In this document: one piece after another, positions 13,672 through 30,589 of the stretch
Numbering within the stretch: position 1 is the first letter of the stretch
How the letters are laid out: the number at the start of each line of letters is the position of its first letter
Assembly: GCF_022701215.1 (NCBI RefSeq)
Contig: NZ_CP089976.1
Coordinates: forward strand, 660,001-692,000
Source: Moraxella nasovis
Lineage (GTDB): Bacteria > Pseudomonadota > Gammaproteobacteria > Pseudomonadales > Moraxellaceae
Direction: 5' to 3'
DNA: 32,000 nt
Program-made: the position numbers and the translations under genes
Notes under the pieces: generated by a model
The model's input: only the letters and a program-made list of their open reading frames with translations
Database searches by the model: none
What the model was told of the DNA's origin: nothing

Positions 13672-13762
13672 GGTGACGTGGCTGAGTGGTTGAAAGCGCA
13701 CGCCTGGAAAGTGTGTATAGGTTAATAGCCTATCGAGAGTTCGAATCTCTCCGTCACCGCCA
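13672..13762 (+). tRNA. tRNA-Ser (anticodon GGA)
   Basis: GGTGACG...CGTCACC acceptor stem, anticodon loop CTGGAAA, long variable arm, GTTCGAATC T-loop and encoded CCA. Confidence 0.93.
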
Positions 13763-13785
13763 CATCAAACAGCCCCCATTTGATG

Positions 13786-13814
13786 CCCTAAATTATTTTT
13801 TTAGGGTTTTTTTG
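13786..13814 (+). terminator. rho-independent terminator after tRNA-Ser
   Basis: CCCTAAA-loop-TTTAGGG hairpin followed by TTTTTTT. Confidence 0.6.
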
Positions 13815-13885: not shown

Positions 13886-14170
13886 CTAAACCGTGAGAAG
13901 ATTTGTAAAGTTGGCAGCTTCACCCGCTTTTACCAGATTGTTAATGCTTTGTACTTGGTCAACTAGGCTGTTTGACACACCCATCGTTAAACCTGTGGTT
14001 TTTTGGTGTTGGTGATTGTAGGTTTCTGTGGTGGCATTCATATTTTGGATGCTCGCTGATTTGGCGTTAATCACCACCGTGCCATGGGTTAGGTCATGCA
14101 CGTTGTCATTGCTTTGGTTACCTGCTGACACCACACTGCCTTTGATGAAGCCTGATTTTGTTTGGTGGTG
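13886..14170 (-). pseudogene. filamentous-hemagglutinin/CdiA repeat-region fragment (both ends missing)
   Basis: Open frame ...KSGFIKGSVVSAGNQSNDNVHDLTHGTVVINAKSASIQNMNATTETYNHQHQKTTGLTMGVSNSLVDQVQSINNLVKAGE. This is FHA-2-type repeat sequence with no credible start and only about 95 aa. Confidence 0.6.
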
Positions 14171-14326: not shown

Positions 14327-14719
14327 TTACTGTCTTGTTTTTTTGCCTTGATTTATGTTGAGATAAGTTCTACGACACTTACTTGCTTGAGACCAACCAA
14401 TTGAAATCATCACATCATTGGTAATGGCTTCTTCGTATATTACTAAATGATATTGGTTGTGGCAATAATTCATTCCATCTTTATTGTTATCAAGAAAAAC
14501 CCACTTTCTTTGACTTTCTATGTTTTTTATTAACTTTTCTTTTTGTTTATTATCTAAATTAATATATGTTATATAAACAGATACCACCTCTGGCTTTACT
14601 CTGTGATAGATTTTATCTGGACTTGGCAAATCTTTTATTACTTGATCTGTTAAGCCATATATATCATTTATTGATGGCATATCTTCTCTATCATCATAAT
14701 TTTTAAGACTAAACTTCAT
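14327..14719 (-). CDS. hypothetical protein, possible orphan immunity protein
   Basis: Track ORF 14327..14737. Preferred start is MKFSLKNYDD at 14719 with an AGGA RBS. It is very AT-rich and in the same orientation as the toxin array. It abuts the IS1016-like element, so its cognate toxin may have been displaced. No recognisable motif. Confidence 0.4.
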   Translation of the reverse strand: MKFSLKNYDDREDMPSINDIYGLTDQVIKDLPSPDKIYHRVKPEVVSVYITYINLDNKQKEKLIKNIESQRKWVFLDNNKDGMNYCHNQYHLVIYEEAITNDVMISIGWSQASKCRRTYLNINQGKKTRQ

Positions 14720-14737
14720 ATTTCCTGTTACGTACAT

Positions 14738-15477
14738 TAAAACAAAAGGGGCTGTACTAGATTAACTTTAAATTCCACACCATTTCCTAAGCACTTTAAG
14801 CTGATGAGAGGCGATCCATAGTTAAATCTAAACTTCCGTCTTTGATAAAAAGATGAATGTTTTTCTTGTCAATACCGTTGTATTTGCGTAGCACACGTTT
14901 GACTTGCGACCAGAAATTTTCAATGCCGTTAATGTGATTGTAAGCATTTTCTTGGTTAACAAACTCTTTTGAATGATTTATCCGAAAGTGTTTGAAGTCT
15001 GATACATCAAGAGCATTGTAACTTCGGTAGCTGTCTGTGTAAACTATGCTGTCAGGCTCGACTTTGCTTGTAATGATAGGCATGAGTGTGTCTGTTTTGG
15101 TGTCTTTAACAACAACAGTATAAACTTTACCATTTGCCTTAAAAGATCAAAGACAGCGGTTTTGCCACCTGCTCTGTGTCCACGTTTACCTTTAGAACAC
15201 CACCGAAATAACTTTCATCAAGCTCAACTTCTCCATCAAAGAGTGTTTGAGCTTCTAGGCTAAGATGGTATTGTATCACAGTTAAGATTTTATGATAAAA
15301 TAACGCTGCTTAAATTATGCTTAAATGCCTAACAAATTACTGGCTGTTCTAGCAGTAACTTGGGCGATGAAAAATTCAAGTAGTTTTAACTGAACTTTTT
15401 TAGTTAGTTTACAACGAGTTATCTTCATTTTTGTCGTATACCACATTGTGTAATCTACTACAGCCCCTATTGTTTTT
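14738..15477 (-). mobile_element. IS1016-like element (IS1595 family) with a decayed transposase gene
   Basis: Terminal inverted repeats AAAACAAAAGGGGCTGTACTAGATTA (left) versus AAAACAATAGGGGCTGTAGTAGATTA (reverse complement of the right end). The C-terminal transposase ORF 14796..15083 reads EPDSIVYTDSYRSYNALDVSDFKHFRINHS...HINGIENFWSQVKR. The N-terminal part (MKITRCKLTKKVQLKLLEFFIAQVTARTA...) is broken by stops and frameshifts. Ends are uncertain by about 10 bp. Confidence 0.8.
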
Positions 15478-15509: not shown

Positions 15510-16025
15510 TCATTTGGTAAATTTTCTGCTCTCTGCACTACCATCGTTCCCAATCTTTTGATACATACTCAAAATTTTAATCAATTCATCTTTGTATTCT
15601 TCGTTGTATGGAATAAAATATTTTTTATTGTTGCTTGATATGGATATTGCATCATAAGCATAATGCGAAATTATTTTGCTTAATAGTGTCATTTTTTTAA
15701 CTTCAATTACTTCAATATTGTTTAAATATTCATATTGAAATTTTGAAAATTTCAATGCCATTTTGCCATCAAGAAAAAATATTCCCACAACAGTTCTTTT
15801 TAAGAAAAATTTATATAAAATATTCTGCAAAATAAATAGAAATCCAACAACACAAAGAAATAAAGAAAAATATGTGTGAGAATTTGGCATGAGTTTAAAA
15901 AAAATATAAGATAAGCAAAGAAAAGCGAAAATTGTTGGCACCATTTCAAAATTCTTTTCATCTAAATATTTTTGATTAATGTATTTATTATATCTATCAT
16001 AATCTAAATTTTTAATTATATTCAT
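15510..16025 (-). CDS. two-TM membrane protein, putative (orphan) immunity protein
   Basis: 171 aa. Two hydrophobic helices (VPTIFAFLCLSYIFF, FSLFLCVVGFLFILQNIL) followed by a soluble tail. GAGGGAGG RBS. Same layout as the 16191..16691 product, including KYFIPYNEEYKDELIKILS versus IFFIPHSKADKNFISHLES. Confidence 0.55.
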   Translation of the reverse strand: MNIIKNLDYDRYNKYINQKYLDEKNFEMVPTIFAFLCLSYIFFKLMPNSHTYFSLFLCVVGFLFILQNILYKFFLKRTVVGIFFLDGKMALKFSKFQYEYLNNIEVIEVKKMTLLSKIISHYAYDAISISSNNKKYFIPYNEEYKDELIKILSMYQKIGNDGSAESRKFTK

Positions 16026-16190
16026 TCAATCCTCCCTCATTGGTAAGAAACACATATTCCATTCACTGTTTTTTTTGCAAGTTATTAATGGCGTAGTACG
16101 TTTTATGGTTGGTTTTTGTTGCCTTATATCATGTAGAATTGCCTGTTGTTGGGTCAATTTTAACAGTAACAACATTTGTATGATATTTTA

Positions 16191-16691
16191 TTATTTCGCA
16201 ACACTTTCCAAATGACTGATAAAATTCTTATCGGCTTTACTGTGTGGTATAAAAAAAATGCTATGTCCATTAGTTAATTTAATAAAGCTGACGGATAAAA
16301 TTGGATCTTTTTTGGTGATAATCCAATTCTTTTTTATAGAGTAATCCCAATCCAAGATGATGGGATTATCAATCATGATTTTTTGATTTAAAAAACCTTT
16401 TCCTTTTATCGTACTATCGACAATACTGATGGTTTTAAAAGACTTTCTGCCATAGTTTATAAGTAGCGCAATCTCTTCGATTGATACCACTGCCAACGAT
16501 ATTATTGGTGGCAGATAGTATGTTGAAATTTTTACTCCGAAAATTTGAACAGCCCATGCATTAGAAGTAAACACATAATAAGAAAAAAATAACATAAAAG
16601 CCAAACATAAGAATAATATAATGAAAGCTCTATTAACCCTATTTATAAAATTACTATCTATGACAAAATAATAAATATTACTTCGATTCAT
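16191..16691 (-). CDS. two-TM membrane protein, putative immunity protein for the VEDN orphan toxin
   Basis: 166 aa. The start lies 2 nt after the stop of the upstream toxin ORF. Two TM helices are followed by a soluble C-terminal domain. Very AT-rich. Confidence 0.65.
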   Translation of the reverse strand: MNRSNIYYFVIDSNFINRVNRAFIILFLCLAFMLFFSYYVFTSNAWAVQIFGVKISTYYLPPIISLAVVSIEEIALLINYGRKSFKTISIVDSTIKGKGFLNQKIMIDNPIILDWDYSIKKNWIITKKDPILSVSFIKLTNGHSIFFIPHSKADKNFISHLESVAK

Positions 16692-16693
16692 TT

Positions 16694-17687
16694 TTATTGT
16701 CCTTTTTTTTGTTTATCTATAGAAATGGTGTATTTTTTATATAGCTCATCCGAAATTTTTCCAAATGACGCATTAGGAGCCACAGTAATTGAGGTCTGAC
16801 ACAAATCACCACAATTGTAGTTACCAAGATACTTTCCTGCACCATAAGTAAACCCATTCACCACATGAGATGGCTTAACACTAAAATCATCGCCTTTGTT
16901 AGAAATAATTTGATTACTATATGCCGCTGCAACACCAACAGTAATTGCTTGTGTTGTATTTTTGGTCATATTTAACGCTCCCCCTCCAAGACCCCCTGTA
17001 ACAGTATTGGATATATAACCCAAAGCATTTCGTTCATTTTTAGGAGTGGTTGCATGGTAGCTTACAGCAGAAGTTGCAGAGCCTACTTTGACTGTTGTTG
17101 GAGTAACTGAAGCTGCTGCGAAGACATAAGGGGTATATCCAGCAGTAGTTGCAGCCAATCTATTGAACTTCATGATAGGCTTCATTGTTTCCGCTACTGA
17201 TTTCTGACTGCTACTCAAAAACGGAGTTATATGCTCAGGCATTACATAAAATAAAAATGGCAAATCCTTACTTTTAGCATTTGAATTTTTCTGTCTGGCA
17301 TCACTACAACCTTCTAAATTTGGGTTTCTTTGACAATGCTCAGCTTTAACAATTTGGTGATTGATGTCTGTTGTAGATATATTAAAGTTACTTGGTGTCC
17401 AACTAAATTGATTATCCTCCACCGCCACCTTAGCCACTTCACTTGCATTTACTGCTTCTGCCACATCACCTGTGGTGGTGTAGGTAGTAGCAACTGTACC
17501 TAGTCTTATGATGCTTGTGATGGTGTCTTTTTGTTCTTGAGTGAGCTTACTAGGTTGGTTTTTGTCATATAAGATTTTGGATAAGGCAGGGGCGACTTTT
17601 TCACTGGTTGCTCCACTGAATGCTCCTAGTGCTACATTATTACCTGTCGCATAGCTTGTGGTAGCTCCTAGTAGGGCATGGGATAAT
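16694..17687 (-). CDS. orphan CdiA-CT module (pretoxin homology, VEDN motif, unique 238-aa C-terminal domain)
   Basis: The frame opens at 17687 with LSHALLGATTSYATGNNV...LTQEQKDTITSI...GDVAEAVNASEVAKVAVEDN (VEDN at 17411-17422). The first ATG is at 17464, which is the track ORF 16694..17464. The pretoxin part is homologous to the 18236..19264 product. The tail is unrelated to it. Confidence 0.75.
17643..17686. repeat. 44-bp repeat copy (pretoxin homology block) with a sharp homology breakpoint at 17686/17687
   Basis: CCTGTCGCATAGCTTGTGG(T/C)AGCTCCTAGTAGGGCATGGGATAA is shared with 19056-19099 (1 mismatch). The flanks diverge immediately on the upstream (gene 5') side. Confidence 0.85.
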
Positions 17688-17732
17688 TAGTGCCTTGTAA
17701 AAATATATAATCACGTTGTGGTACGAGTTGAT

Positions 17733-18239
17733 TTATTCTAATGCTTTGGCGTAAGATGCCAAATCTTGCAAAGCTCGTGGATTTTTACCGCCCCACCAGT
17801 GTTTACGGCATTCACTTCTAGGACTCCAAAATACATGTATGCCAAAAAATTCTCGTTCATCTATCTTAAATTCAACATACATACCATCTTTCAAGCAAAA
17901 TATTTTTTTCTCATCCACTTCAAGCACAACAAATTTTTTGTCTGCAATGATTTTAATCATGACATTTTCAGATTTATCATAGGCAAAATATCTTGAAAAG
18001 TAATAATGGTCGGCTTTTCTAAAATAATCTTCATCTAAATAGGATCTGTCAAAATCTGTCAATTCATCAACAACTTGAGCCATTTTCTCTTTATTTGGCA
18101 AATCATAGTATTTCCATTGATACAAATAAGGATTCGCCTTTTCAAAACTTTTGTCGTACAATTTATAAAAATACAGCCCAAATAAAGCGGTGCTTATTAT
18201 ACCACCTACGATAAGTATGATTTTATTGAGTAGATTCAT
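17733..18239 (-). CDS. N-terminally membrane-anchored protein, putative immunity protein for the VENN orphan toxin
   Basis: Track ORF 17733..18350. The real start is most likely MNLLNKIILIVGGIISTALFGLYFY at 18239, whose ATG overlaps the toxin TGA stop (ATGA). One TM helix plus a soluble domain. Confidence 0.7.
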   Translation of the reverse strand: MNLLNKIILIVGGIISTALFGLYFYKLYDKSFEKANPYLYQWKYYDLPNKEKMAQVVDELTDFDRSYLDEDYFRKADHYYFSRYFAYDKSENVMIKIIADKKFVVLEVDEKKIFCLKDGMYVEFKIDEREFFGIHVFWSPRSECRKHWWGGKNPRALQDLASYAKALE

Positions 18240-19264
18240 TTTAAAACACCTAAGTCTTTTAAGATCTTCTTCTCGGTATCTGTCAGCTGTCGCATCACAG
18301 TGCCACCAACACCAACTTGGGTAGTACCTACACCTGTTGCCACAGTCCAATACCCTTCCTTCCCTTCACCTCTAGATACACTCAAACAAGCATAATGACA
18401 ACCTTGCAAACCAAGAGATCTACCTCCAATCGCCTGATCCACTTTTGCCTCGCTACTACCCGCACCAATAACTGTTCCAACCTGAACAGAAATCCCCAAA
18501 GAAACAGGTTTTTTGAAGCCTTTAGCTTTAATATCGTCTTGGATTCTATTTACATAATCTTTTGGATTTATGGTAATTCCATATCCAGCTTGGTATTCAT
18601 CTGATTTAGGCATTCCACCAATCCAAACATTGCCATTTCTATTGTTTACAACAATGGTATATGAAAACACACCAGCACTTACCGAATATATTGTTAAATC
18701 ATGATATTTATCAGCGTATTCCCCAAAGATGTCACCAAGGGTTCTTACCTCGCAAGCATTAACATCCCCATTCCTGCACGCACGAGCATTTAAGGCTCTA
18801 CCTTTTTGCATATAGTTTGCACCTCCATTATTCTCCACCGCCACTTTCCCAACTTCACTTGCATTCACCGCTTCTGCCACATCGCCAGTCGTCGCACCAA
18901 CTCCAAGTCCTGCAAGGCTTGCAATACTACTTACCGTCTGTTTTTGTTCTGTGGTTAGCTTACTTGTGTCAGAAGTGCCAAATAGATATTGAGATAAAGG
19001 TTTGGCAGTAGCCTCAGCACCCATCGCAGACAACGCTCCAGTCGTTGGGTCGTTGCCTGTCGCATAGCTTGTGGCAGCTCCTAGTAGGGCATGGGATAAA
19101 ATGTGTGGGGCAGTACCTTCGGTGTTGTTTTGTTTAAAGTGTTGTCCGATTTGATAGGAAAGTTCTGGGCTTAATACTCTGGATATGTCGCCTGTGATGC
19201 CGTTGCCGTTAGGTGCATATAGGGCGGATGTGATGCCATAAAATAGGCGTAGGTTGTTCATCAT
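18236..19264 (-). CDS. orphan CdiA-CT module (about 145-aa pretoxin region, VENN motif, unique 196-aa C-terminal domain)
   Basis: 342 aa. ...ELSYQIGQHFKQNNTEGTAPHILSHALLGAATSYATGN...LTTEQKQTVSSIASLAGLGVGATTGDVAEAVNASEVGKVAVENN (VENN at 18827-18838), then an unrelated tail GGANYMQKGRALNARACRNGD... Confidence 0.8.
   Translation of the reverse strand: MMNNLRLFYGITSALYAPNGNGITGDISRVLSPELSYQIGQHFKQNNTEGTAPHILSHALLGAATSYATGNDPTTGALSAMGAEATAKPLSQYLFGTSDTSKLTTEQKQTVSSIASLAGLGVGATTGDVAEAVNASEVGKVAVENNGGANYMQKGRALNARACRNGDVNACEVRTLGDIFGEYADKYHDLTIYSVSAGVFSYTIVVNNRNGNVWIGGMPKSDEYQAGYGITINPKDYVNRIQDDIKAKGFKKPVSLGISVQVGTVIGAGSSEAKVDQAIGGRSLGLQGCHYACLSVSRGEGKEGYWTVATGVGTTQVGVGGTVMRQLTDTEKKILKDLGVLK
19056..19099. 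repeat. 44-bp repeat copy (partner of 17643-17686)
   Basis: Same 44-bp block. Here the homology to cdiA-type sequence continues upstream. Confidence 0.85.
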
Positions 19265-19270
19265 AAAAAT

Positions 19271-19717
19271 TTAGCTTCTTTGATTCTTGGTTAAATAGAA
19301 CAGTAAAGCCATAAAAAGCAGAGTTGATGGTATTGATACCAAAAAATAATATAACATTTCATCCATAATATCATGAGAATTTGTATTGTAGAAATGAAAA
19401 CTGGGAAACTTTAAAATCATAAAACCATAAATTATTATCAATAAAAATGATATCAAATTTTTTAATGATTTATTCCTTACCCACCACTGAATAAAACATA
19501 CAAGCAACAAGACTGGGGAAAAAAATATAGTGGCAATAAAATCAAGGAAAAACGGTGCCATTGCTATTATCTTAATTGATTCAATAAAGCTAGGAGCGAT
19601 GCCATCTCCTCCAATCTCTATAGATATTACCAGTATCAAAAAAATAAAGTAAGATACAATATAAAATGATAAAAAAACCAAAAATAGTGTCTTAAAAAAT
19701 AAAGCCTCCGTTCTCAT
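19271..19717 (-). CDS. polytopic membrane protein, putative immunity protein for the truncated cdiA toxin
   Basis: 148 aa, almost entirely hydrophobic helices (4-5 predicted by eye). AAGGG RBS. Very AT-rich. It is the first sizeable ORF downstream of the 19956 toxin stop. Confidence 0.55.
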   Translation of the reverse strand: MRTEALFFKTLFLVFLSFYIVSYFIFLILVISIEIGGDGIAPSFIESIKIIAMAPFFLDFIATIFFSPVLLLVCFIQWWVRNKSLKNLISFLLIIIYGFMILKFPSFHFYNTNSHDIMDEMLYYFLVSIPSTLLFMALLFYLTKNQRS

Positions 19718-19754
19718 GGCTTATACCCTTGTTCTTAAATGCTAATCCGCCCCA

Positions 19755-19871
19755 TTATACACCCATACCCATCTTGAAAACTATGTATGCACCATATAGC
19801 AAATATAATATTAGGAAAACTAACGATGTAATTGTCATAAAGAATATCATGTTGTACAACTTTTTATCCAT
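19755..19871 (-). CDS. possible 38-aa hydrophobic peptide
   Basis: MDKKLYNMIFFMTITSLVFLILYLLYGAYIVFKMGMGV lies between the toxin stop and the 19717 start. The RBS is weak and the ORF is below the track cutoff. Confidence 0.2.
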   Translation of the reverse strand: MDKKLYNMIFFMTITSLVFLILYLLYGAYIVFKMGMGV

Positions 19872-19955
19872 CAATGATTTTTATACCTTTGCACAGCGAT
19901 GAATATTAATATATAAAAGAGAATATAGCTACGATAAAAAGTAGATAACTATTCA

Positions 19956-21842
19956 CTATTTCTTCTCCTTTTCAAAGCTATCTAATGCTTTATCAACTAT
20001 ATTTTGGGTCGCATTGTTAGCAATACTTCCTTTCACCTCTAGAATAGGTGGCAACTCTCCAAAAATAACTTTACTTGGCATTGAGCCAATCTGTCTAATT
20101 GGCACATTTCGTCTACTTTCTAATGAAGTTATATCTCCCTTTCCACTACCAAAGTCAATATAGGGATCTACGTCATAATCCTTATGTCCGATTTTTTCAG
20201 TTCTGGGAGCGTAATAATTGTAGCTACCGGCATTTGTTGGATTATTGACTATTCTGCTATAATCATCAGGACTTAATATTCCATCTTTAGTATCGATCAC
20301 TATTTCTAACCGTCCATTATTATGAACAAATTTCTTATAACGATAATGTCCATTAGGTAATTTATTTGGAATACCATTTGCATCAAAATTATGAAAAATA
20401 TTTTCTTCATCAAGCATTGGTTTCCAATTATTCATGTTGCCATTCGTATTATCTTGTAAAAATAAACTATTTGCCTCAGCATTCCATCGTTGTCTTTGAG
20501 TCACATGCAAATAATAGAATTGTTGACAACCTTTGCCAGCACGACAATTATCATACGCTGCATTAAAATCCTTATCTCTTTTTTCACCAAGATTGTCAAA
20601 CTCTTTTATTTGGTAATCAAGTCTATCAAGTTTTGACTTACAATCAGAGTCAATCAAACAACTAAGTCTAGTTGAATACCTGCTAAGAAGTCTTTGTTTT
20701 TCCTGTTGCAACTTAGCTAATTTGGCATTCTCAATATGATTCAAATAATTATTCTCCGTCTGATTAACGCTATTGGCCACACTTGCGGTGTTATCGCCAA
20801 TAGCACCACCAATACCTGCTGATAGTGTAAGTAAGACTGTATCTCGAGTTTGTTTATCATAACCTTGTTGTTCTAGGTATTTATCAACTTTTGGAATAAC
20901 AATCGCTGTTCCACCGCCTGCAACTGTCCCTTCAATTGAACCTGTGGCTAAAGCACTAGATAATGTATGAAGTGCGACACGGTAGATACCGCCCTCTGCC
21001 CATTTTTCGGCTTCATCAATATTACCTTTGTTGATTAGCTCAAGCTATTTATTACTTGCATAATCCCCAATCGCTTTTGGCATTTCTTTACCATATTCTT
21101 GGGTGATGGCTATCTGAGCATCAATCTCTTGATTGACCCTATCCTTATCAAAGTTATTGACCAGTGTTTCATTGAGTGTACTTACATTATTGGTGGTTAT
21201 CTCAAACTTACCTGCCATACCTGTTACTGCACCATAGGTGGTGGAAGTTTGGTTGTCGCCGTCTTTGCCATAACCTATGCCACTGATTTTAGGTTTTTGA
21301 CCTGCTTTGGTAGAAATACCGACATTAATGTCATCGGCTTTATAATTGCTGTGGTTTTGAATATCGCTGACTTGTAAACCACCATTAAACTGGGTTTGAT
21401 TATCTTTTTGGGTAGCTGTGGTAAAGTAAGCTCCTTTGAATGTGCTTTTACCATGGACAATAACATCAGACTTTTGGTAGGCAAATCCTGTTTGTTCGGT
21501 TACTGCTTTATAATCGGCATTTGCTTTGGTGCGACCACCATTGACTGCAATACTTGAGCCTGCACCTTGTTTGGCTAAATCGATATCCACATTAAAACCA
21601 GCACTGCTTTGTCTGCCCTCATAGGTTTTGGTATCTTGACGGCTGGTGGCATGAATACCTCCGCTGATATGCCCTGTCATGTGCTTGCCTTTTTCTATGG
21701 CACCATCTAGGATATAATCACCACCCACATTTTGATAAGTCGTTCCTGCTACTGTGATGTGGCTGTTAGTATTAGTGATGGTGGTGGTTCTTCCATGTCC
21801 TTTTGCCATAGATTTCAAAATGATGGAAATGGTAATTTTCAT
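19956..21842 (-). pseudogene. cdiA: 5'-truncated cdiA/FHA-family exoprotein 3' end with its own CT toxin, interrupted by an in-frame TAG
   Basis: ORFs 21045..21842 and 19956..20780 are in the same frame. The read-through is ...NNFDKDRVNQEIDAQIAITQEYGKEMPKAIGDYASNK*LELINKGNIDEAEKWAEGGIYRVALHTLSSALATGS...ASVANSVNQTENNYLN (TAG at 21045-21047, TENN at 20748-20759). The upstream part is FHA-2-like (TTTITNTNSHITVAGTTYQNVGGDYILDG...). FHA-like sequence stops near 21800-21812. Confidence 0.8.
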
Positions 21843-21929
21843 TGGAATGGCTCTACTAATGGAAAAACATCAAAAGGAGAATCAAGATCTATTAAAATCA
21901 CAGATGTCCCCAATGAATTAAAAAGGTAG
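21806..21929 (+). pseudogene. 3' tail of an unidentified toxin gene (remnant)
   Basis: The plus frame ...RFQNDGNGNFHWNGSTNGKTSKGESRSIKITDVPNELKR* ends 6 nt before the next ORF start. Sequence upstream of about 21806 is antisense to the cdiA fragment, so only a tail survives. Confidence 0.35.
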
Positions 21930-21935: not shown

Positions 21936-22397
21936 ATGAAGTTAATAGGAAATAAAGATATTTATCTTGAAGTAGATATTGTTACATATTGTAATAATAT
22001 GGCTCATCTTGTTCTGATAATAGGTAATACAAGAATTGGAACATTGGATTCTCCAACTTATATTCCTAGCTTTATCGCTTCATTAGAAAGTTTATTATTG
22101 GAAAATGTTTATTTTTATGAGAATATGAATATTGATGTATTTACCAAAATGGCATTGGGTGGTGAATTAGAAAATAAAAATGCGTTTACTTTAGAAGATA
22201 CATTCGATGATTTTATGAAGCGATGTATTAGAAGTAAAGACAATTTATATTTTTATTTTAAACTATACACAGATCATTTTTTTGAATATAAAAATATCGA
22301 TGTTAATGTGCCTATTATTAAAATAATTAGTGTAAAAAACTTTGATTTATTTTTAAGTGATATCAAATATTTTTTTAATAATATTAATATGTATTAA
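21936..22397 (+). CDS. hypothetical protein, putative immunity protein
   Basis: 153 aa, soluble and very AT-rich. It starts 6 nt after the toxin-tail stop. No recognisable motif. Confidence 0.5.
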   Translation: MKLIGNKDIYLEVDIVTYCNNMAHLVLIIGNTRIGTLDSPTYIPSFIASLESLLLENVYFYENMNIDVFTKMALGGELENKNAFTLEDTFDDFMKRCIRSKDNLYFYFKLYTDHFFEYKNIDVNVPIIKIISVKNFDLFLSDIKYFFNNINMY

Positions 22398-22810
22398 TCA
22401 ACACTACCTATAACTTTGAAGTACAAGACCTCCACACCTACCATATCGGTAAGTATGGAGTGTGGGTGCATAATGATTGTTGGAATAATCTCCCAAATGG
22501 TGCAGTAGCAACAGGAAAAACTACGATTGATGGACGAAAACTTTATACTTTTAAAGACGATAAAGACAAACAAGTTACAGTTTATCAGGGTTCTGATGGT
22601 CGTTAGTACGATCCCAAACTTCATTCCCCAACTCAGCCTACTGCTACTGGGGTTAAGGCTGTTGATTACATACCATCATTACATGAGTACAACCAAAAAG
22701 TTAATGGTCCTGGTTTGTCAAGAGATAAGAAAATTTCATATATCAAAGACACATTATCTAAGATCGCTCAACGAAATGGATGGATTAAGGATAATACTCT
22801 ATCCAAATAA
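22388..22810 (+). pseudogene. PT-HINT C-terminal remnant plus toxin domain, with an in-frame TAG
   Basis: Plus-strand frame with codons starting at 22388, 22391 and so on: YVLINTTYNFEVQDLHTYHIGKYGVWVHNDCWNNLPNG...VTVYQGSDGR*YDPKLHSPTQPTATG...IAQRNGWIKDNTLSK*. YNFEVxDxHTYxxGxxGVWVHN is the classic Hint/PT-HINT C-terminal block. TAG at 22604-22606. There is no start codon, and the 5' end overlaps the preceding stop. Confidence 0.7.
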
Positions 22811-22827
22811 ATGACTTTATACTAACA

Positions 22828-23250
22828 GTGGCCTGGAAAAGCCTTCCCTATCAGAAATATATACCCGGAATGGGGAATTATGATATTAAAGAAGCTCATG
22901 GAAATGGAACCACTTATGCGGATGGGACTAGAAAGGCTTATGATGGATATTTATTTCATGGGAAATATGTAACTTTAAGAGAAGGTGGAAATATTCTAGC
23001 AGGGATGAATGCTGCTACTTTAGGTATACCTTATGAGGATTTTCAAAAGGCTAGTGGTGCATTGCATGTTGGTGGTATAGCTGGATTAATGAATCATTTA
23101 ACTACAGGTAAAGTTTATGGTAATTACCCCAGATATGGCGAAATAGATTACCAATACCTAAGAAGTAGGTATGGATATAATTTAGGAATAAAAAGGATAG
23201 AATGCAATATTGATAATGCAAAACTTGGTTCTGATTGCCAAACAAAATAA
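22828..23250 (+). CDS. stand-alone toxin domain, toxin-44 (Ntox44)-like
   Basis: 140 aa from a GTG. LREGGNILAGMNAATLGIPYEDFQKASGALH...YGEIDYQYLRSRYGYNLG resembles my recollection of the GN..AG..AA..G / GE..YQ...GY..G pattern of polymorphic toxin type 44. No delivery or pretoxin region. The family assignment needs an HMM search. Confidence 0.45.
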   Translation: MAWKSLPYQKYIPGMGNYDIKEAHGNGTTYADGTRKAYDGYLFHGKYVTLREGGNILAGMNAATLGIPYEDFQKASGALHVGGIAGLMNHLTTGKVYGNYPRYGEIDYQYLRSRYGYNLGIKRIECNIDNAKLGSDCQTK

Positions 23251-23260
23251 GGAGCTATTA

Positions 23261-23671
23261 ATGAGTTTTTTTAGATATATAATAATATTTTATTTTAAAA
23301 TAATTATTTTATTGTTGTCTTTAATTATTTTATTATATCTATTTATAGCAAAAGAAAAAGCATATTATTATTGTGATGATATTTGTATAACTATAATACA
23401 ACATAATGCAGGTAGAGATACTTTTTTTAGAGTGTATGATGGTATTTTGTTGAGTAGGTACGCTTATCTTATTTATTCTTATGCTGAATATCCAAATGAA
23501 ACATACATATATATAAAAAACAAGAAAATTGATGGAAAGATAATTGTAGAAAACTTTACCATGCCAGTTAAATATAAAGGAAAACTAAATAACGCAAACT
23601 TTTATTTATCATCTTATGAGAGTAGCGAAATAAAATTCACAGAGTTAAAATATTTATATTTATTCTTCTAA
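23261..23671 (+). CDS. membrane-anchored protein, putative immunity protein
   Basis: The ATG at 23261 lies 6 nt after an AAGGAG that overlaps the toxin stop. MSFFRYIIIFYFKIIILLLSLIILLYLFIA is a TM anchor, followed by a soluble domain. Extremely AT-rich. Confidence 0.6.
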   Translation: MSFFRYIIIFYFKIIILLLSLIILLYLFIAKEKAYYYCDDICITIIQHNAGRDTFFRVYDGILLSRYAYLIYSYAEYPNETYIYIKNKKIDGKIIVENFTMPVKYKGKLNNANFYLSSYESSEIKFTELKYLYLFF

Positions 23672-23701: not shown

Positions 23702-24261
23702 GCCTCAAAGCATGATGGTAGGGGTATTTTTTTATCAAACAGTCTTGCTCAAACGTCGTTGCCAACTCAATGGCACACTGCCTTTTCTTCTCTTGTGTCT
23801 AAGGCTGGTGTCACACTCATCGCCAACATCGCCCATAAGCTTAGTGCAGGATTAACAGGCTGTCTGTCTGCCAAAGTCAAAGATAGTTCTTGCAAAGCTG
23901 GGGCAGTTGGCTCTATCATAGGAGAGATGGTAGGCGATTGGATGACCAATGGACATAAGATCACCCTGCCTAATGGCGGTGGTTAATAATGCTGTCAATA
24001 AAGAATTGGTTGGGATGGCAGAAGATTTTGAAGGCTTGCTAAACAGCTCTATACGTAAAGTTGGATTACTTCGTGGTGATGACGCACATGCCTACCTTTT
24101 ATCCTTGAATGAAAAAAATTTGATGTTGGAGCCAACGCAAACGGGCTACTTCAATAATAAAAAATCTAGATATATTTACACAGAACAGGGTGGATGGATA
24201 GATATGGTTCATTTCTTGTTTTACGCTAGTGAAGCATATAACTATAAAATGCAAATGATAA
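23702..24261 (+). pseudogene. orphan toxin module, 5' part (pretoxin fragment, frameshift, toxin domain) cut by IS982
   Basis: The frame opening at 23702 reads ...NSLAQTSLPTQWHTAFSSLVSKAGVTLIANIAHKLSAGLTGCLSAKVKDSSCKAGAVGSIIGEMVGDWM, the Cys-x-Cys / GxxVGExVG pretoxin pattern of CdiA/MafB-type proteins. It shifts frame near 23975 into VVNNAVNKELVGMAEDF...GGWIDMVHFLFYASEAYNYKMQMI. Confidence 0.6.
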
Positions 24262-25241
24262 ACCCCACTCTCAACTTAAAATCATCTCAAATTGTAGTGG
24301 CGGATTACCAAGTTGTTTATTAATCTGCACACAAAAAGTATGAGCAAGTAGCTTTCTAACAAAACGACAAGACAAGTGGTATATGTCTTTTGCTTTTACC
24401 TTTTGTATGTTAAACCTATCTGACAGTTGAGAGATGGTAGTCTCTATGGTCTTTTTTTTCTTTTTAAGGTAAGACAAAAAGCCCTTATCTTTATCATCTG
24501 TCATATTATCCCTAAGGGGAGTTTGCAAATCAATGGCATATCTTTTTAACCCATCTTGTCAATCTTTGGATAAACAACCCTTATCACCAAACACCTGACC
24601 TTGTAGGTTATCTGTTAGCTCAAATACCACTTGTCTGTCATCTACGTTTGCCCCTGTTAGCGTGTAGCTTATCACTTGTCCTTGTGTGTTGGTCAGTAGA
24701 TGTGCCTTAAAGCCAAAGTAATGCTCATCTTGACTGGCACAGTAGCCAAAAGCAACCATGCCATTAAAGTTCTTGTGTCGTCTTGCTCTACCATAGCGAC
24801 ATACAGATATAGGAAAGCTATCTATCAAATCAGGCGATGAGTTTTGACTGGCTTTATTTTGTATGGCAAGTGCATTCATCATCTTGTTTGTTACCCAATA
24901 CAAATTGGCACAGTGTTTGGCAAAGTTGGGGTATGAGCCAATTTTGGGAAAGTGGTGTGTGTAGTGGTTTTTAAAGTAAGACCACATTTGCCTGTCTGTA
25001 TCTACACCTAAACACTCTGCCACAATCTGCATAGTAATCACTTCACTATCAGACAAGGCAGGGGGAAAGCCACGAGTTCTGATAGGAGTTGTTACAATAC
25101 TTTTATATAAAACATCTACCATAAGGCACACGGTAATGATAAAATCATCATAAGACATAACTTGCTCCGTTTTTGTGCTAAAAATAGGATTGGGTTATGT
25201 CTTTTTTATTTTAAGGTTGTTGGGAAAGTTGAGATTGGGGT
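24262..25241 (-). mobile_element. IS982-family insertion sequence (980 bp)
   Basis: Inverted repeats ACCCCACTCTCAACTT (24262-24277) and ACCCCAATCTCAACTT (reverse complement of 25226-25241). They are flanked by a 3-bp direct repeat TAA (24259-24261 and 25242-25244). Confidence 0.85.
24271..25158 (-). pseudogene. IS982-family transposase with an in-frame TGA
   Basis: ORFs 24559..25158 and 24271..24528 share one frame: ...QVFGDKGCLSKD*QDGLKRYAIDLQTPLRDNMTDDKDKG...IETTISQL... TGA at 24559-24561. The family is recognised from the GDKGY-like, DLxTPxR and IETxxSQL motifs. Confidence 0.8.
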
Positions 25242-25244
25242 TAA

Positions 25245-25555
25245 AACAAGATTTTAGCTACTGCCCATCTTGGCTTAATCCCAAACAAACCCACAAAACC
25301 AAACATCATCACAGTATCTATTTAGGAATGGATGCTGGCTTTGTGAAAAACAAAAATCACGAACAAGATAAACTACTACTTGGTCATAGCCTAGTTGGCG
25401 CTGCTATAGGCATTAAAGGACAAATCACCCCAACTACCAATCATCCTTACGCCAGTTTCAACTATGGCCTGTTCACCGCCAAAGCCATTCATGAGCCAAA
25501 TCATTTCTCAGATAAAGATTGGGTGAGTGGATTTAGTGTTGGTATGGGGTTTTAG
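25245..25555 (+). pseudogene. orphan toxin module, 3' part downstream of the IS982 insertion
   Basis: Deleting the IS and one TAA copy joins ...YNYKMQMI to KQDFSYCPSWLNPKQTH...SGFSVGMGF* in frame. Track ORF 25175..25555 starts artificially inside the IS. Confidence 0.55.
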
Positions 25556-25694: not shown

Positions 25695-27068
25695 TTACAA
25701 CCAAATCTTATCAGGGTTCATGATGTTATTAGGGTCAATGGCGTGCTTAATGCTTTTCATGAATGCTAACGCTCCGCCATGCTCATCGTTCATATATTGA
25801 CGCTTACCCTGCCCTACGCCATGTTCGCCCGTACAAGTACCGTCCATGTCAATGGCACGCCGAGCAAGTCTCTCCAAGATTTCTTTGGCGTGGGCAACCT
25901 CAGTATCATTATCTGTATCCACAAGTAACATGACATGAAAATTACCATCGCCCACATGACCCACCACAGGACCTATCATCTGACGAGCTTCTATGTCTTT
26001 TATGGTGTCGGTAACACACTCGGCAAGTCGTGAGATTGGCACGCAGGCATCGGTAGATAAACCACTGGCATGTGGGCGTAAGGCACGGCTGGCGTGATAG
26101 GCATTATGCCGTGCTGCCCACAGCTGTTTACGCTTGGCTTCATCGGTATCCCATACAAAATCTGTACCACCAAAATCTGCAATAATCTCACCAAACAAAG
26201 TCGCCTGTTCAACAACGCCTGTATCCGTGCCATGAAACTCTACCAACAATGTCGCTGTTTCGCTCAAATTAAGCTTAGAATAAGCATTACACGCCTTTAC
26301 CTGCATCGCATCTAGTAGCTCAATGCGAGCAATTGGCAATCCAAATTGAATGGTCGTCATGACCGCTTGGCAAGCCATATCCACATTGGGGAAATGACAA
26401 ATACCACTACCAATACATTCAGGCACGCCAAAAAGCTTGACAGTAATCTCGGTAACTATCCCAAGCGTCCCCTCAGAGCCGATGATAAGCCGTGTCAAAT
26501 CATAGCCTGCCGATGATTTTTTGGCACGACTGGCGGTCTTGATGATCTCGCCATTTGGCATGGCAACCTCCAAAGACAGCACCACATCTTTCATCGTGCC
26601 ATAACGTACCGCATTCGTACCACTCGCCCTTGTCGCCACCATACCGCCAAGCGTGGCATTCGCACCTGGGTCTATTGGAAAAAACAGCCCTGTGTCCCTA
26701 AGATACTGATTTAATGCTTCACGAGTAACGCCTGCTTGCACTGTGGCGGTCAAATCCTCATTATTTACCTGCACAATCGCATTCATCTGGCTCATGTCAA
26801 TACACAGTCCACCTCGTGGGGCATTTAATTGCCCTTCTAGCGATGACCCCATGCCAAAGGCAATGACAGGCATGCCGTATTCTTGGCAAATCTTGATGGC
26901 ATCGCTGACCTCATATTTATCCATGACACTAAGCACAGCATCACTTGGCTCATTATCAAGCCATGTCATCGTATGGGCGTGCTGTACTCGCACCGTCATA
27001 TTCGTAGAGAGCTTGTCACCAAACCGCTGTGTTAATTTATCAATCGCTTCTATAAACCGATGAGACAT
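25695..27068 (-). CDS. FAD-linked oxidase, D-lactate dehydrogenase (cytochrome)/GlcD-like
   Basis: 457 aa. The FAD-binding PCMH-type N-terminal part has PVIAFGMGSSLEG. The C-terminal part has GTCTGEHGVGQGKRQYM and IKHAIDPNNIMNPDKI, typical of GlcD/DLD enzymes. Confidence 0.85.
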   Translation of the reverse strand: MSHRFIEAIDKLTQRFGDKLSTNMTVRVQHAHTMTWLDNEPSDAVLSVMDKYEVSDAIKICQEYGMPVIAFGMGSSLEGQLNAPRGGLCIDMSQMNAIVQVNNEDLTATVQAGVTREALNQYLRDTGLFFPIDPGANATLGGMVATRASGTNAVRYGTMKDVVLSLEVAMPNGEIIKTASRAKKSSAGYDLTRLIIGSEGTLGIVTEITVKLFGVPECIGSGICHFPNVDMACQAVMTTIQFGLPIARIELLDAMQVKACNAYSKLNLSETATLLVEFHGTDTGVVEQATLFGEIIADFGGTDFVWDTDEAKRKQLWAARHNAYHASRALRPHASGLSTDACVPISRLAECVTDTIKDIEARQMIGPVVGHVGDGNFHVMLLVDTDNDTEVAHAKEILERLARRAIDMDGTCTGEHGVGQGKRQYMNDEHGGALAFMKSIKHAIDPNNIMNPDKIWL

Positions 27069-27425: not shown

Positions 27426-28679
27426 ATGACAGACTCATCACAAGTCGGCACGGGCAAGGAGCTAAATTGGCGTGCTTTTGGGCCTGGTATTTTGATGGCA
27501 TCGGCAGCAATCGGTGGTTCACACTTAATTTCATCAACCCAAGCTGGGGCGTTATATGGTTGGCAACTTGCCATCATGATTATTCTTGCCAACCTGTTCA
27601 AATATCCTTTTTATCGTTTCGGCACACAATACGCTTATAGCACAGGCAATAGTCTCGTGGTCGGCTATGCCAAAAAATCTCGTGCCTACCTATGGGTGTT
27701 TTTTGTTCTTTGTATCATCTCTGGTGTCATCAGCACAGGGGCAGTCGCCCTACTGTGTGCTGTCATCTTGGGGCATATGCTACCATTTGAACTTGGTACT
27801 TTGACATTGTCTGCCATTGTGATGGTTTCGTCATGGGTGCTATTGGTGGCAGGACATTACAAACTGCTTGATAATGTTACCAAATGGATCATCGTAGCTT
27901 TGACGGTTGCGACATTGGCAGCAGTTGCAGTGGCGGTAGGCAAGCCTTCTGTCATGCAACCTGACTTTATTGAAACATCGCCTTGGAATCTAGCAGCACT
28001 TGGGTTTATCATCGCATTGATGGGTTGGATGCCAGCACCGCTTGAATTTTCAGCGATTACCTCGGTTTGGACCGCCAAGAAAATTCACACCGATCATACC
28101 AGTCGTTATCAAGGCATGGTGGATTTTAATGTGGGTTATATGACTTCGGCGATTTTGGCGTTGTTTTTCTTGGCACTTGGGGTGTTGGTTCAATATGGGT
28201 CGGGTAAAGAAATTGCCATGCAAGGCGGTGCTTATGTAGGACAGCTCATACAGATGTATACCCAAACCATTGGCGAATGGTCTAGATTGCTTGTTACTTT
28301 CATCGCTTTTTTGTGTATGTATGGCACGGTGATTACCTGTATTGATGGCTATGGGCGTACCAACGCAGAGAGTTTGTCGCTCATCAAGACAGGCGATACC
28401 AGCATGACCGAAAACTATGTCAAAATATGGACGACCTTAACTGCCATCGCAGGCTATGTTCTAATCGCCTTTTTCTTGGGGCAAATGGCGGCATTGCTAA
28501 AATTTGCCATGATCAGTGCTTTTGTAACCGCACCGATTTTCGCCTATTTAAACTATTCACTCATCAAGAGCGAGAATCAATTATCTGCTTTCATGAAATG
28601 GTTTGCGATTGTCGGTATTGCATTTTTGAGTGGATTTACATTATTGTTTTTATTGCAATTTTTTGGATTGATTACTTAG
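27426..28679 (+). CDS. NRAMP-related membrane transporter (non-canonical metal-site motifs)
   Basis: 417 aa, about 11 TM. FGPGILMASAAIGGSHLISSTQAGALYGWQL aligns with E. coli MntH [31 protein letters not shown], but GGSH replaces DPGN. MGWMPAPLE sits where MPHN is expected. Confidence 0.8.
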   Translation: MTDSSQVGTGKELNWRAFGPGILMASAAIGGSHLISSTQAGALYGWQLAIMIILANLFKYPFYRFGTQYAYSTGNSLVVGYAKKSRAYLWVFFVLCIISGVISTGAVALLCAVILGHMLPFELGTLTLSAIVMVSSWVLLVAGHYKLLDNVTKWIIVALTVATLAAVAVAVGKPSVMQPDFIETSPWNLAALGFIIALMGWMPAPLEFSAITSVWTAKKIHTDHTSRYQGMVDFNVGYMTSAILALFFLALGVLVQYGSGKEIAMQGGAYVGQLIQMYTQTIGEWSRLLVTFIAFLCMYGTVITCIDGYGRTNAESLSLIKTGDTSMTENYVKIWTTLTAIAGYVLIAFFLGQMAALLKFAMISAFVTAPIFAYLNYSLIKSENQLSAFMKWFAIVGIAFLSGFTLLFLLQFFGLIT

Positions 28680-28710
28680 GCGTATTAAGCCTGATTTTAT
28701 AAAAATATAA

Positions 28711-28741
28711 AAAAGACCTGCCAACTGTGATAGGTCTTTTT
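28711..28741 (+). terminator. rho-independent terminator after the NRAMP-related gene
   Basis: AAAAGACCT-loop-AGGTCTTTT hairpin followed by Ts. Confidence 0.7.
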
Positions 28742-28756
28742 ACTATGGTTAAGGTT

Positions 28757-29245
28757 GGATTGGTAGTAGATTACACCATGTGATATACTATAAATTCAAA
28801 CTAACTATTTGTAAAATAAGAAAAATTTTAGTTAAGCCTACTTGAATTTTTATGCTCTAAGCAGTCACCAAAAGTACAACGATTTACTTTAGATGTTCCC
28901 AAATTTAGCAGCCGTTATTTTGTTGTAGATCCGCCTTGTAATAAGAATGCCCAGCCTTTAAAGCTAAAACATGCTTTGATAAAAAAAATAAAACTTAATG
29001 AAAGCTATCTTAGTAAAGAGTTTGTTCATCAAAAAAAAGCTTACAATCATACCAATAGTATTGAGAGTTTTGGTCGCAAGCTAAGCGTACACTACGCAAA
29101 TATAACAACATTGATAAGAAAAACATTCATCTTTTTATCAAAGACTTAATTTAGATTTAACTATGGCTCGCCTCTCATCAGCTTAAAGTGCTTAGGAAAT
29201 GGTGTGGAGTTTAAGGTTAATCTAGTACAGCCCCCATTTTTTTTG
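28757..29245 (+). mobile_element. decayed, internally deleted IS1016-like relic (inverted relative to 14738-15477)
   Basis: The left end GGATTGGTAGTAGATTACACCATGTG resembles the GGGGCTGTAGTAGATTACACAATGTG end of the other copy. The last roughly 200 bp (AAAGAGTTTGTT...CATCTTTTTATCAAAGAC...CTCTCATCAGCTTAAAGTGCTTAGGAAATGGTGTGGA...TTAATCTAGTACAGCCCC) align well. The middle is missing and no ORF survives. Confidence 0.7.
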
Positions 29246-29392
29246 TTGATAAACAGAAATTTAGCTTTGGATAAATATCCATCACTCAAACTGAGCTTTC
29301 TTTCAATATAGGCTAAATCTCCACCTGATTCCCTTAGGAGTCTATCTAACTCTTTTTTTGGAGAACCTATTTTATCTTTGATTTAATGCAGA

Positions 29393-29807
29393 CTATAAGC
29401 AAGAATTCAACACCAAACGCAAGCTTTTTCCAACTTCATGGGATATGCCATCCAAAGGTAAGGTAACTGTCTTATCATCATCCAAGCCTTCCCAAGCATC
29501 AAATCCAACATGGCGATTAGGATAAATATTTATCATACCATCAAACAAGTATACATCACAAAGCATCATATTTTTTTAAATAATGTTTTTTTTGATTTGT
29601 AGCCCAAAAACTGACATAACTGATCTATCTAAGCTTTCATAGCTACTCTTAGCTTTGGTCAAATCAAAAAAAAATTACAATTTCTTTACTGCCCACAATA
29701 AATGTTCTGCTATTATATAAAGATTTCAACAATATTTCACCAAGCATATTATCATCAATATCTAAGGGTAAAATATAAGGCTGATACATATAATCTAACC
29801 CCATCAT
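29393..29807 (-). pseudogene. immunity-like gene disrupted by two homopolymer frameshifts
   Basis: Three frame segments on the minus strand: MMGLDYMYQPYILPLDIDDNMLGEILLKSLYNSRTFIVGSKEIVIFF / FDLTKAKSSYESLDRSVMSVFGLQIKK / YLKKYDALCDVYLFDGMINIYPNRHVGFDAWEGLDDDKTVTLPLDGISHEVGKSLRLVLNSCL*. The shifts coincide with the A9 (29666-29674) and T8 (29586-29593) runs. Confidence 0.45.
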
Positions 29808-29811
29808 ACCA

Positions 29812-30108: not shown

Positions 30109-30163
30109 TTATTTTTACTATTATGTAAATATTTTTATCACAAAAAGGTAATTTTTATAATTT

Positions 30164-30375: not shown

Positions 30376-30589
30376 GGTAAAATTTAACTTTTAATAGCAA
30401 TGTGCCTAAATTAAAGTCGTGGTCATTTTAGCCATTCTTAAAACTCGCTAAAATTCATCTTAGGCACGTTTTAGGCACAAAAAAAAGGTACAAAGATTTT
30501 TATGTTTAAACCTGTGTGCCTTAAAAAGGCTATGTGTATTGCTTGATAAGTATTTTATGCACTCTAAGTTACTAATGTTACACACAACA

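Follow-up and report, generated by a model that had tools for sequence, protein, structure and literature searches.

The window analysed here, a stretch of 32,000 nucleotides (nt) from Moraxella nasovis, very probably contains part of a decayed contact-dependent growth inhibition (CDI) locus of the CdiB/CdiA kind: the truncated end of a cdiA gene and orphan cassettes whose toxins could not be delivered from the locus itself, with immunity genes that probably protect the cell and toxin parts that are probably silent. Arrays of orphan cdiA-CT/cdiI cassettes are of an already known kind; what is new is the host, and the decayed, stand-alone state of the array. An earlier annotation made from the letters alone, which we call the sequence-only reading, had described orphan cdiA-CT/immunity cassettes behind the 3' end of a truncated cdiA, and this description is borne out by domain matches and, more strongly, by the comparative context. 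Whatever is said below of absent cdiA or cdiB genes covers the 32,000-nt window only.

A truncated cdiA end and two orphan cassettes

The core of the locus is made of three minus-strand units, with lengths in amino acids (aa):

19956-21842, minus strand: U1, a 5'-truncated, nonsense-interrupted cdiA 3' end with a Fil_haemagg_2 match
18236-19264, minus strand: U2, an orphan cdiA-CT with 146 aa of PT-VENN pretoxin (Pfam, 39.8 bits) and a 196-aa tail
16694-17686, minus strand: U3, an orphan cdiA-CT with 92 aa of PT-VENN-type pretoxin and a 238-aa tail rich in Gly and Ala

The units lie where the sequence-only reading had put them, and translation reproduces the coordinates of their motifs: TENN of U1 at 20748-20759, VENN of U2 at 18827-18838, and VEDN of U3 at 17411-17422. 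Domain matches were judged by the Pfam gathering cut-offs, 22 bits for Fil_haemagg_2 and 20.3 bits for PT-VENN.

U1 is laid out as about 250 aa of FHA-2 repeats, a pretoxin of class A (defined below) that ends in ..NQTENN with the junction just before YLNH, and a tail of 263 aa. Its N-terminal part reaches 41.8 bits with Fil_haemagg_2, in agreement with the proposal that it holds FHA-2-like sequence. It had also been drawn as a single open reading frame (ORF) starting at the ATG at 21842, and neither feature holds: the homology to cdiA begins only at about 21809, inside the FHA-2 region (tblastn), and the frame is broken by an in-frame TAG at 21045-21047, a site occupied by Gln in relatives. 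The unit is 74% identical to sequence of Faucicola mancuniensis, and 45-50% identical to the M. osloensis cdiA (3734 aa) and to an orphan (tblastn). Pfam finds no TPS or ESPR domain in the ORFs scanned across the window, the longest of which has 557 aa; of CdiA, the window thus keeps FHA repeats, in U1, and lacks the N-terminus with its signal/ESPR and TPS parts.

The sequence-only reading gave all three units the same composition: a VENN-type pretoxin, an unrelated tail, and a coupled membrane-protein gene. This is correct for U2 and U3, and fails for U1, which has no PT-VENN match and is followed by a gap of 238 nt. The domain searches that had been suggested as a check return Fil_haemagg_2 in U1 and PT-VENN in U2, and leave U3 at 20.2 bits, 0.1 below the cut-off. 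The U1 pretoxin has no PT-VENN match in Pfam and no significant BLASTP similarity to the pretoxins of U2 and U3, and a profile-profile comparison of class A with class B, the class of the latter two, gives a probability of 2.3% with an E-value of 0.02: the class-A pretoxin as a homologue of PT-VENN, a candidate that we considered, is supported by none of the three methods. Because its pretoxin class differs, and because it contains a nonsense codon, U1 is unable to drive U2 and U3, the role of "driver" in which it had been cast.

U2 is an intact ORF of 342 aa with an ATG and no convincing ribosome-binding site. It is 100% identical to the M. nasovis protein P0001, annotated as "VENN motif pre-toxin domain-containing protein", and full-length homologues, 53-57% identical, are found in four other Moraxella species. 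U3 opens abruptly at LSHALLGA, directly after stop codons, and its 5' end lacks a start codon. Read from its earliest start, a GTG at 17464, the product is 100% identical to the M. nasovis "hypothetical protein LU293_03390". Its homologues are 53-58% identical.

The two cassettes are related to each other up to their junctions. The first 92 aa of U3 are 59% identical to U2 (BLASTP, E-value 2e-23), and this conservation ceases at VENN/VEDN. At the DNA level, a block of 47 nt that begins exactly where U3 begins (17640-17686) is 96% identical to positions 19053-19099 of U2, and a second block, 85% identical, spans the VENN codons. U2 and U3 are thus both cdiA fragments with a pretoxin motif and a tail and without the 5' part of cdiA, as orphan modules are; they do not lie downstream of a complete cdiBAI, the gene at their head, U1, being truncated and cdiB being a stump.

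Protein searches with U1-U3 returned only "hemagglutinin repeat" and "VENN pre-toxin" proteins from Moraxellaceae, Neisseriaceae and metagenomes, alike in their N-terminal parts and varied in their tails. These searches listed no full-length CdiA, although the loci that we fetched contain them, and the absence of an M. nasovis CdiA from them is not used as evidence. The longer relatives have two alternative pretoxin classes behind one FHA-2 backbone. Class A, which includes U1, has the form ..ITQEFGKEAPKAVGDYAS..KWAEGG.YRVALHTL..NQTxNN, with the junction just before YLxH; class B, which includes U2 and U3, has the form ..coiled coil..LFDSITGAIYGPN..SYQIGQYFK..HILAHG..VAVE/DDN, with the junction after the final N. 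The tail of U1 belongs to a family common to P0073-P0091, and relatives with the U1 backbone bear other tails, which Pfam matches to toxin-deaminase (PF14424), Tox-REase-3, Ntox47 and Endonuclea_NS_2. When U1 is compared with P0079, P0101 and P0107, sequence conservation ends at NNYLxH.

The comparator loci are those of M. osloensis (L006), M. bovoculi (L020) and M. cuniculi (L023) and the metagenomic L024 and L027, with L025, L026, L028 and L029 as further loci. Homologues of the U1 tail (U1-CT), of U2 and U3 with their immunity genes I2 and I3, and of a further gene, I1, lie there in orphan arrays immediately behind full-length cdiA genes with ESPR, TPS and Fil_haemagg_2 domains. In M. osloensis the order is the end of cdiB, a cdiA of 3734 aa, a cdiI of 143 aa, and three orphans. 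In M. bovoculi a cdiA of 2631 aa (TPS, ESPR, Fil_haemagg_2) and its cdiI precede an orphan 57% identical to U2 and a gene 38% identical to I2; after these come an orphan with a U1-type tail and, at a greater distance, a cdiB in the same orientation. The 2804-aa cdiA of M. cuniculi is associated with at least nine modules, a U1-type tail among them, and in L027 a cdiA of 2554 aa is followed by homologues of U2-CT with I2, of U3 with I3, and of I1. L028 and L029 combine U3 and I3 with homologues of a pair found on the plus strand of our window, at 22810-23671.

The M. nasovis array thus has in common with those of other Moraxellaceae the homologues of U1-CT, of U2 with I2, of U3 with I3, of I1 and of the plus-strand pair, as well as the same two pretoxin classes and FHA-2 backbone; it differs from them in that the comparator arrays are joined to an intact cdiA of 2511-3734 aa. 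The proposition that such cassettes are unlinked to TPS-domain cdiA genes is contradicted by five loci.

Two other sets of sequences came up along the way. L008 (BMPS01000028.1) is labelled Streptomyces cinereus JCM 3040, but its cdiA is of the Moraxella type and its cdiB matches the M. osloensis L006 gene at about 99% identity; almost certainly, this contig is a contamination of the Streptomyces assembly. In F. mancuniensis NZ_CP171363.1 (L001-L005), five FHA-2-bearing fragments occupy two near-duplicate regions, each with a convergent pair about 14 kilobases (kb) apart, as ORFs of about 1100 aa that have no cdiB upstream on the same strand. Given this arrangement, rearranged and truncated cdiA genes seem to be common in Moraxellaceae.

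Immunity genes and toxin tails

The following minus-strand genes accompany the three units; transmembrane (TM) segments were called by Kyte-Doolittle hydropathy.

19755-19874, minus strand: candidate immunity peptide of U1-CT, a 38/39-aa ORF with a single TM segment, MMDKKLYNMIFFMTITSLVFLILYLLYGAYIVFKMGMGV, ending ..LLYGAYIVFKMGMGV
19271-19717, minus strand: I1, 148 aa, 4-5 TM segments
17733-18239, minus strand: I2, immunity gene of U2, 168 aa when read from the ATG at 18239, with a single N-terminal TM segment
16191-16691, minus strand: I3, immunity gene of U3, 166 aa, 2 TM segments, starting 2 nt past the U3 stop
15510-16025, minus strand: candidate stand-alone immunity gene, 171 aa, 2 TM segments, with a strong Shine-Dalgarno motif GAGGGAGGA

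The assignments of I2 and I3 follow from position, here and elsewhere. The ATG of I2 overlaps the stop of U2 (ATGA), and homologues 38-39% identical come directly after the U2 homologues in M. bovoculi L020 and in L027; I3 homologues, 45-55% identical, come directly after the U3 homologues in L027, L028 and L029. The toxins and cognate immunity genes expected of CDI are thus represented by pretoxin-marked variable tails and by a linkage that is kept in other genomes. The 15510-16025 ORF has no homologue in the comparator loci.

U1 is a different matter. The sequence-only reading had paired it with the gene at 19271-19717, here I1, and this pairing is probably wrong: the gap between the two genes is 238 nt, the I1 homologue follows another toxin, and I1 is absent beside the homologues of U1-CT. 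In L027 the I1 homologue (18128-18571), 67% identical, lies behind a different class-A toxin, and no I1 homologue was found beside the U1-CT homologues of four other loci. Moreover, the segment 19035-19733, which covers I1, the intergenic DNA and the 5' end of U2, is collinear with L027 18112-18826 at 74% nucleotide identity over 717 nt, with another toxin upstream there. This comparison suggests that I1 is probably the kept immunity gene of a displaced toxin rather than the partner of U1.

A better candidate lies between U1 and I1. The 38-aa ORF listed above is a likelier partner of U1-CT than I1 is, to judge from its conserved position, an argument to which no statistics are attached. Directly past the U1 stop there is a hydrophobic stub of 16 codons. 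In the locus of the closest U1-CT homologue (L024/L025) the next ORF is a hydrophobic one of 36 aa ending ..FQIGMGV, and hydrophobic ORFs of 42 aa (L024) and 43 aa (L026) overlap the stop of the U1-CT homologue. In M. cuniculi and M. bovoculi, membrane proteins of 89-90 aa ending LLYGASVL/LLYGASIL, a fused counterpart of the small ORFs, follow the U1-CT homologues; aligned to these 89/90-aa immunity genes, the DNA of the gap between U1 and I1 is AT-rich and gives an ambiguous result.

Toxins and immunity genes have fared differently. Motifs resembling Shine-Dalgarno sequences precede I1, I3, the 15510-16025 ORF and two plus-strand ORFs starting at 21936 and 23261, and are not found before U1, U2 or U3. 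Measured against their homologues, which are no more than 38-67% identical, all the assigned immunity ORFs are complete; the toxin parts beside them are broken.

The tails of U1, U2 and U3 show no significant mutual similarity in an all-against-all BLASTP comparison, as the sequence-only reading had judged by eye. In the family alignment of U1-CT, residues H81, H119, H142, E148, D152, H188 and D192 are invariant; these His, Glu and Asp residues suggest an enzyme, and its AlphaFold2 model (pLDDT 71) has no fold match in the PDB. The tail of U2 (U2-CT, 18239-18826, minus strand) has an AlphaFold model of pLDDT 68 with a C-terminal beta-barrel, which Foldseek matches to VapG, VapB and VapD of Rhodococcus equi (E-value 7.7e-4, probability 1.0, TM-score 0.61 on the target). 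The likeness is unaccompanied by any similarity at the sequence level, and a Vap-like fold for U2-CT is only a lead. The tail of U3 (U3-CT, 16697-17410, minus strand), rich in Gly and Ala, has a family of 7 proteins at E-value 1e-3 or below among 1.84 billion representative proteins.

Every immunity protein assigned here is a membrane protein. The three tails are therefore probably toxins of the envelope (membrane or periplasm) and not nucleases. One can go further and conjecture that the U2 tail is a Vap-like eight-stranded beta-barrel toxin acting on membranes and countered by a membrane-anchored immunity protein, and that the U1 tail is countered by the one-helix peptide of 38 residues; taken together, these two proposals are doubtful. 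If they were true, the poorly understood fold of the R. equi Vap virulence proteins would be tied to interbacterial CDI toxins, and the 38-residue peptide would be an unusually small CdiI.

The island around the array

The three units and their immunity genes are the middle of something larger, whose other parts are the following (IS, insertion sequence).

13672-13762, plus strand: tRNA-Ser(GGA) (Rfam, 59.9 bits; ARAGORN), left border of the AT-rich toxin island
13886-14134, minus strand: internal cdiA FHA-2 fragment of about 75 aa, cut at both ends
14327-14737, minus strand: soluble ORF of 136 aa, with no Pfam match, no TM segment and no homologue in the fetched loci
14796-15470, minus strand: IS1595-family transposase fragment (Pfam DDE_Tnp_IS1595, E-value 1e-13; tblastx matches to F. 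mancuniensis L001/L002)
21936-22397, plus strand: soluble ORF of 153 aa with a Shine-Dalgarno-like motif, preceded by an open tail of about 39 codons (21811-21929)
22397-22810, plus strand: C-terminal end of a PT-HINT pretoxin (..HTYHIGKYGVWVHN, junction just before C) and a toxin fragment with an in-frame stop
22810-23250, plus strand: toxin tail without pretoxin, a 140-aa ORF, 73% identical to the C-terminus of the PT-VENN protein P0040 and 63% to L028 5118-5492
23261-23671, plus strand: immunity gene of the 22810-23250 tail, 136 aa from the ATG at 23261, 1 TM segment, Shine-Dalgarno AAGGAG
23759-24260, plus strand: composite pseudogene, a Cys-type pretoxin (23759-23986) out of frame with a VENN-like AVVNN junction (AVNKE following) and toxin fragment
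24261-25242, minus strand: IS of 982 base pairs with 17-nt terminal inverted repeats, 94% complementary (Pfam DDE_Tnp_1_3, E-value 3e-21)
25310-25555, plus strand: cdiB/tpsB 3' end, the last ~80 codons to the terminal Phe, about 85% of the gene missing at the 5' side (Pfam ShlB C-terminus, E-value 4e-4)

Together they form a decayed CDI island of about 11.8 kb (about 13.8 to 25.6 kb of the window), between tRNA-Ser/pepD and a glcD-like FAD oxidase gene at 25695-27068, its right edge. Between the tRNA-Ser(GGA) and this gene, the guanine-plus-cytosine (GC) content falls from about 0.45 to 0.27-0.39, and the AT-rich interval comprises all the parts of the array. The extent of 15510-21842 first given for the array is therefore right in that the units lie there, and too narrow in that the array runs on at both sides and onto the opposite strand. 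Elsewhere the window encodes housekeeping functions (by Pfam: ETF-QO, LysR, Lnt, CorC, pepD, the glcD-like FAD oxidase and others). A terminator-like hairpin lies at 13785-13807, beside the tRNA-Ser(GGA), and a search of the window for an att-like repeat of the 3' end of this tRNA gene found none.

At the left end, the fragment at 13886-14134 is 69% identical to F. mancuniensis L001 9269-9493 and 65% identical to the M. osloensis cdiA (L006 9299-9520) by tblastn, and blastx matches it to residues 120-194 of P0083; it is probably what is left of one more long orphan, at the distal end of the array. The 136-aa ORF at 14327-14737 is possibly a stranded immunity gene, a suggestion we make weakly.

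On the plus strand, the 21936-22397 ORF, for which no homologue was found, is a candidate for the immunity gene of a toxin that would have lost its body. The next fragment (22397-22810) is 46% identical by blastx to residues 358-465 of P0128, a protein with PT-HINT (PF07591). The pair that follows is better attested: a gene 67% identical to the immunity gene at 23261-23671 comes directly after the toxin homologue in L028 and L029. The composite pseudogene at 23759-24260 is 74% identical to M. bovoculi L020 76-237 and 50% identical to residues 156-265 of the 367-residue P0043, has a weak match to the DUF637 C-terminus, and is cut at its 3' end by the IS, whose transposase ORFs lie at 24559-25158 and 24271-24528.

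The cdiB stump lies on the strand opposite to U1-U3, between the 982-bp IS, which it directly follows, and the glcD-like gene, 140 nt further on. It is 54-56% identical to the C-terminus of the M. osloensis cdiB that stands directly before cdiA (E-values 1e-21 to 1e-23). The sequence-only reading had seen neither cdiB nor a full cdiA in the window: there is indeed no full cdiA, but the 3' remnant of cdiB at 25310-25555 had escaped it. No POTRA domain was found in the window, which thus contains no complete CdiB transporter. Since the two flanks of the IS cannot have been contiguous, most of cdiB and the DNA preceding it would have been removed by an IS-associated deletion. A single inversion was considered as the origin of the back-to-back minus-strand and plus-strand arrays and rejected, every such scenario needing at least one additional deletion.

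The position of cdiB varies among relatives: in M. osloensis it comes before the array, in M. bovoculi after it and in the same orientation. In the latter (L020, CP011374.1) the gene lies at 19839-21038, downstream of the cdiA-cdiI-orphan array, with none before that cdiA, an arrangement that reflects either tandem loci or a gene order cdiA-orphans-cdiB. The plus-strand order of our window (cassettes, IS, cdiB stump) matches the order of L020.

Beyond the island, a 417-aa polytopic membrane protein with no Pfam match at E-value 1e-3 or below is encoded at 27426-28679 on the plus strand. A second islet of low GC content (0.30-0.33) at 28700-30703 adjoins a tRNA-Gly(GCC) at 30628-30703; it holds an IS1595-like scrap (28976-29149), several ORFs of 47-58 aa, and at 30214-30375 a small ORF that, judged by eye, resembles a helix-turn-helix protein.

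Origin and function of the array

The locus is unable to export or deliver toxins, since a TPS domain, a signal peptide and a usable CdiB are all missing from the window. The marks of decay are many: the TAG at 21045-21047, the stops upstream of U3, the plus-strand frameshift and in-frame stop, the IS, and the cdiB stump. We propose that the array would have grown as incoming toxin/immunity pairs recombined in the conserved pretoxin region and older cassettes were pushed downstream; that I1 would have been stranded when the U1 tail and its small immunity ORF replaced the toxin of I1; and that the delivery genes would have been lost later, through IS-associated deletion or rearrangement. The immunity genes, still expressed, would probably guard the cell when neighbouring Moraxella attack it with the matching CdiA toxins, and the toxin parts, lacking start signals, would be silent spare parts or pseudogenes.

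Much of this has parallels. Orphan cdiA-CT/cdiI cassettes have been described downstream of cdiBAI in Escherichia coli EC93 and EC869, Yersinia pseudotuberculosis and Neisseria meningitidis, the orphan toxins lacking initiation signals and accompanied by immunity genes (Poole et al. 2011, PMC3150448). As in those arrays, the stretch kept before VENN varies in length among the M. nasovis cdiA fragments; the tails, unrelated to each other, have homologues in other bacteria and are each followed by a small immunity gene; initiation signals are found at immunity genes and not at toxins; and IS elements interrupt cassettes. Unlike them, the M. nasovis array stands alone, with a beheaded cdiA at its head and a cdiB of about 80 codons; its fragments lie on both strands, with two to four pretoxin types in one island; and all its assigned immunity proteins are membrane proteins.

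The closest parallel within the Moraxellaceae is with the orphan regions of the type-II cdi loci of Acinetobacter (De Gregorio et al. 2019, PMC6336857), where remnants are also pushed downstream by incoming cdiA-CT/immunity pairs, immunity genes predominate, and non-VENN pretoxin modules (PT-LPEN) occur too. The differences are that the class-A junction, ..NQTxNN before YLxH, does not belong to PT-VENN or, judging by its motif, to PT-LPEN, and that Moraxella orphans often keep several hundred FHA-2 residues (741-930 aa, for example). That orphan immunity genes are kept after effector replacement has also been proposed for the type VI secretion clusters of Vibrio cholerae (PMC6336857); I1 would be the same phenomenon, an old immunity gene kept after a new toxin/immunity pair came in, in a secretion system of type Vb rather than type VI.

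Several points weigh against the account of a decayed locus with protective immunity genes. The expression of the immunity genes and their protective activity are predictions from sequence. A functional cdiBA elsewhere in the M. nasovis genome may use these cassettes, and U2, intact and with an ATG, is not obviously dead. Searches of Pfam, NCBIfam and PDB sequences gave no match for any of the three tails, and the envelope as their target is based only on the membrane immunity proteins and one model of medium confidence. Finally, every comparator array sits behind a full-length cdiA, so that a stand-alone array is atypical, and it might be recent debris with no kept function.

The first of the rival explanations to be weighed is that of a silent reservoir, in which the pretoxin sequences of the cassettes would allow recombination with a functional cdiBAI elsewhere in the chromosome and so a switch of its toxin/immunity type. 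We regard it as possible, if tentatively so. The 146 and 92 aa of pretoxin kept by U2 and U3, the intact ORF of U2, and the two DNA blocks that U2 and U3 share (96% and 85% identical) at the 5' edge of the cassette and at VENN, a mosaic expected of recombination, are all in its favour, and the fusion of an orphan to the upstream cdiA is documented in Yersinia (PMC3150448). However, the only cdiB at hand is a stump and no full cdiA accompanies it, the U1 pretoxin is of another class and its gene carries a nonsense codon, and in five of the five comparators the array stands directly behind cdiA, whereas here the partner would have to act from a distance.

It is unlikely, in our estimate, that the whole island is pure genomic debris, functionless down to its immunity genes and heading for deletion. 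Such an end would suit the nonsense and frameshift lesions, the truncations, the two IS elements, the fragments on both strands, and the three small ORFs without detectable homologues (14327-14737, 15510-16025 and 21936-22397); but every assigned immunity ORF is kept at full length, against homologues as divergent as those cited above, next to broken toxin parts, and Shine-Dalgarno motifs lie selectively before immunity genes.

PT-VENN and PT-HINT pretoxins occur also in toxins outside the CdiA family, and the Cys-type and HINT fragments of the plus strand are not specific to CdiA; yet a delivery system other than CDI (Rhs/type VI secretion, MafB-type or another) is scarcely credible and largely refuted, since the Pfam scans of the window ORFs tested show no Rhs/YD, PAAR, VgrG or Maf (DUF1020) domain, the window contains the FHA-2 repeats of U1 and a cdiB stump, homologous cassettes stand behind cdiA genes with a TPS domain, and PT-HINT is joined to Fil_haemagg_2 in relatives such as P0125.

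We thus return to the decayed CDI locus. It leaves the understanding of CDI unchanged; it draws attention to three uncharacterised toxin families, all of them paired with membrane immunity proteins, and to a pretoxin junction, ..NN before YLxH, that the PT-VENN model misses. It also offers one clean case of toxin displacement in which the old immunity gene was left behind. It shows, in an unstudied sheep-nasal Moraxella, what becomes of a CDI locus after the loss of its delivery genes: the toxins decay, and the immunity genes stay intact with ribosome-binding sites, a pattern that supports the idea of orphan arrays as maintained chiefly for their repertoire of immunity.

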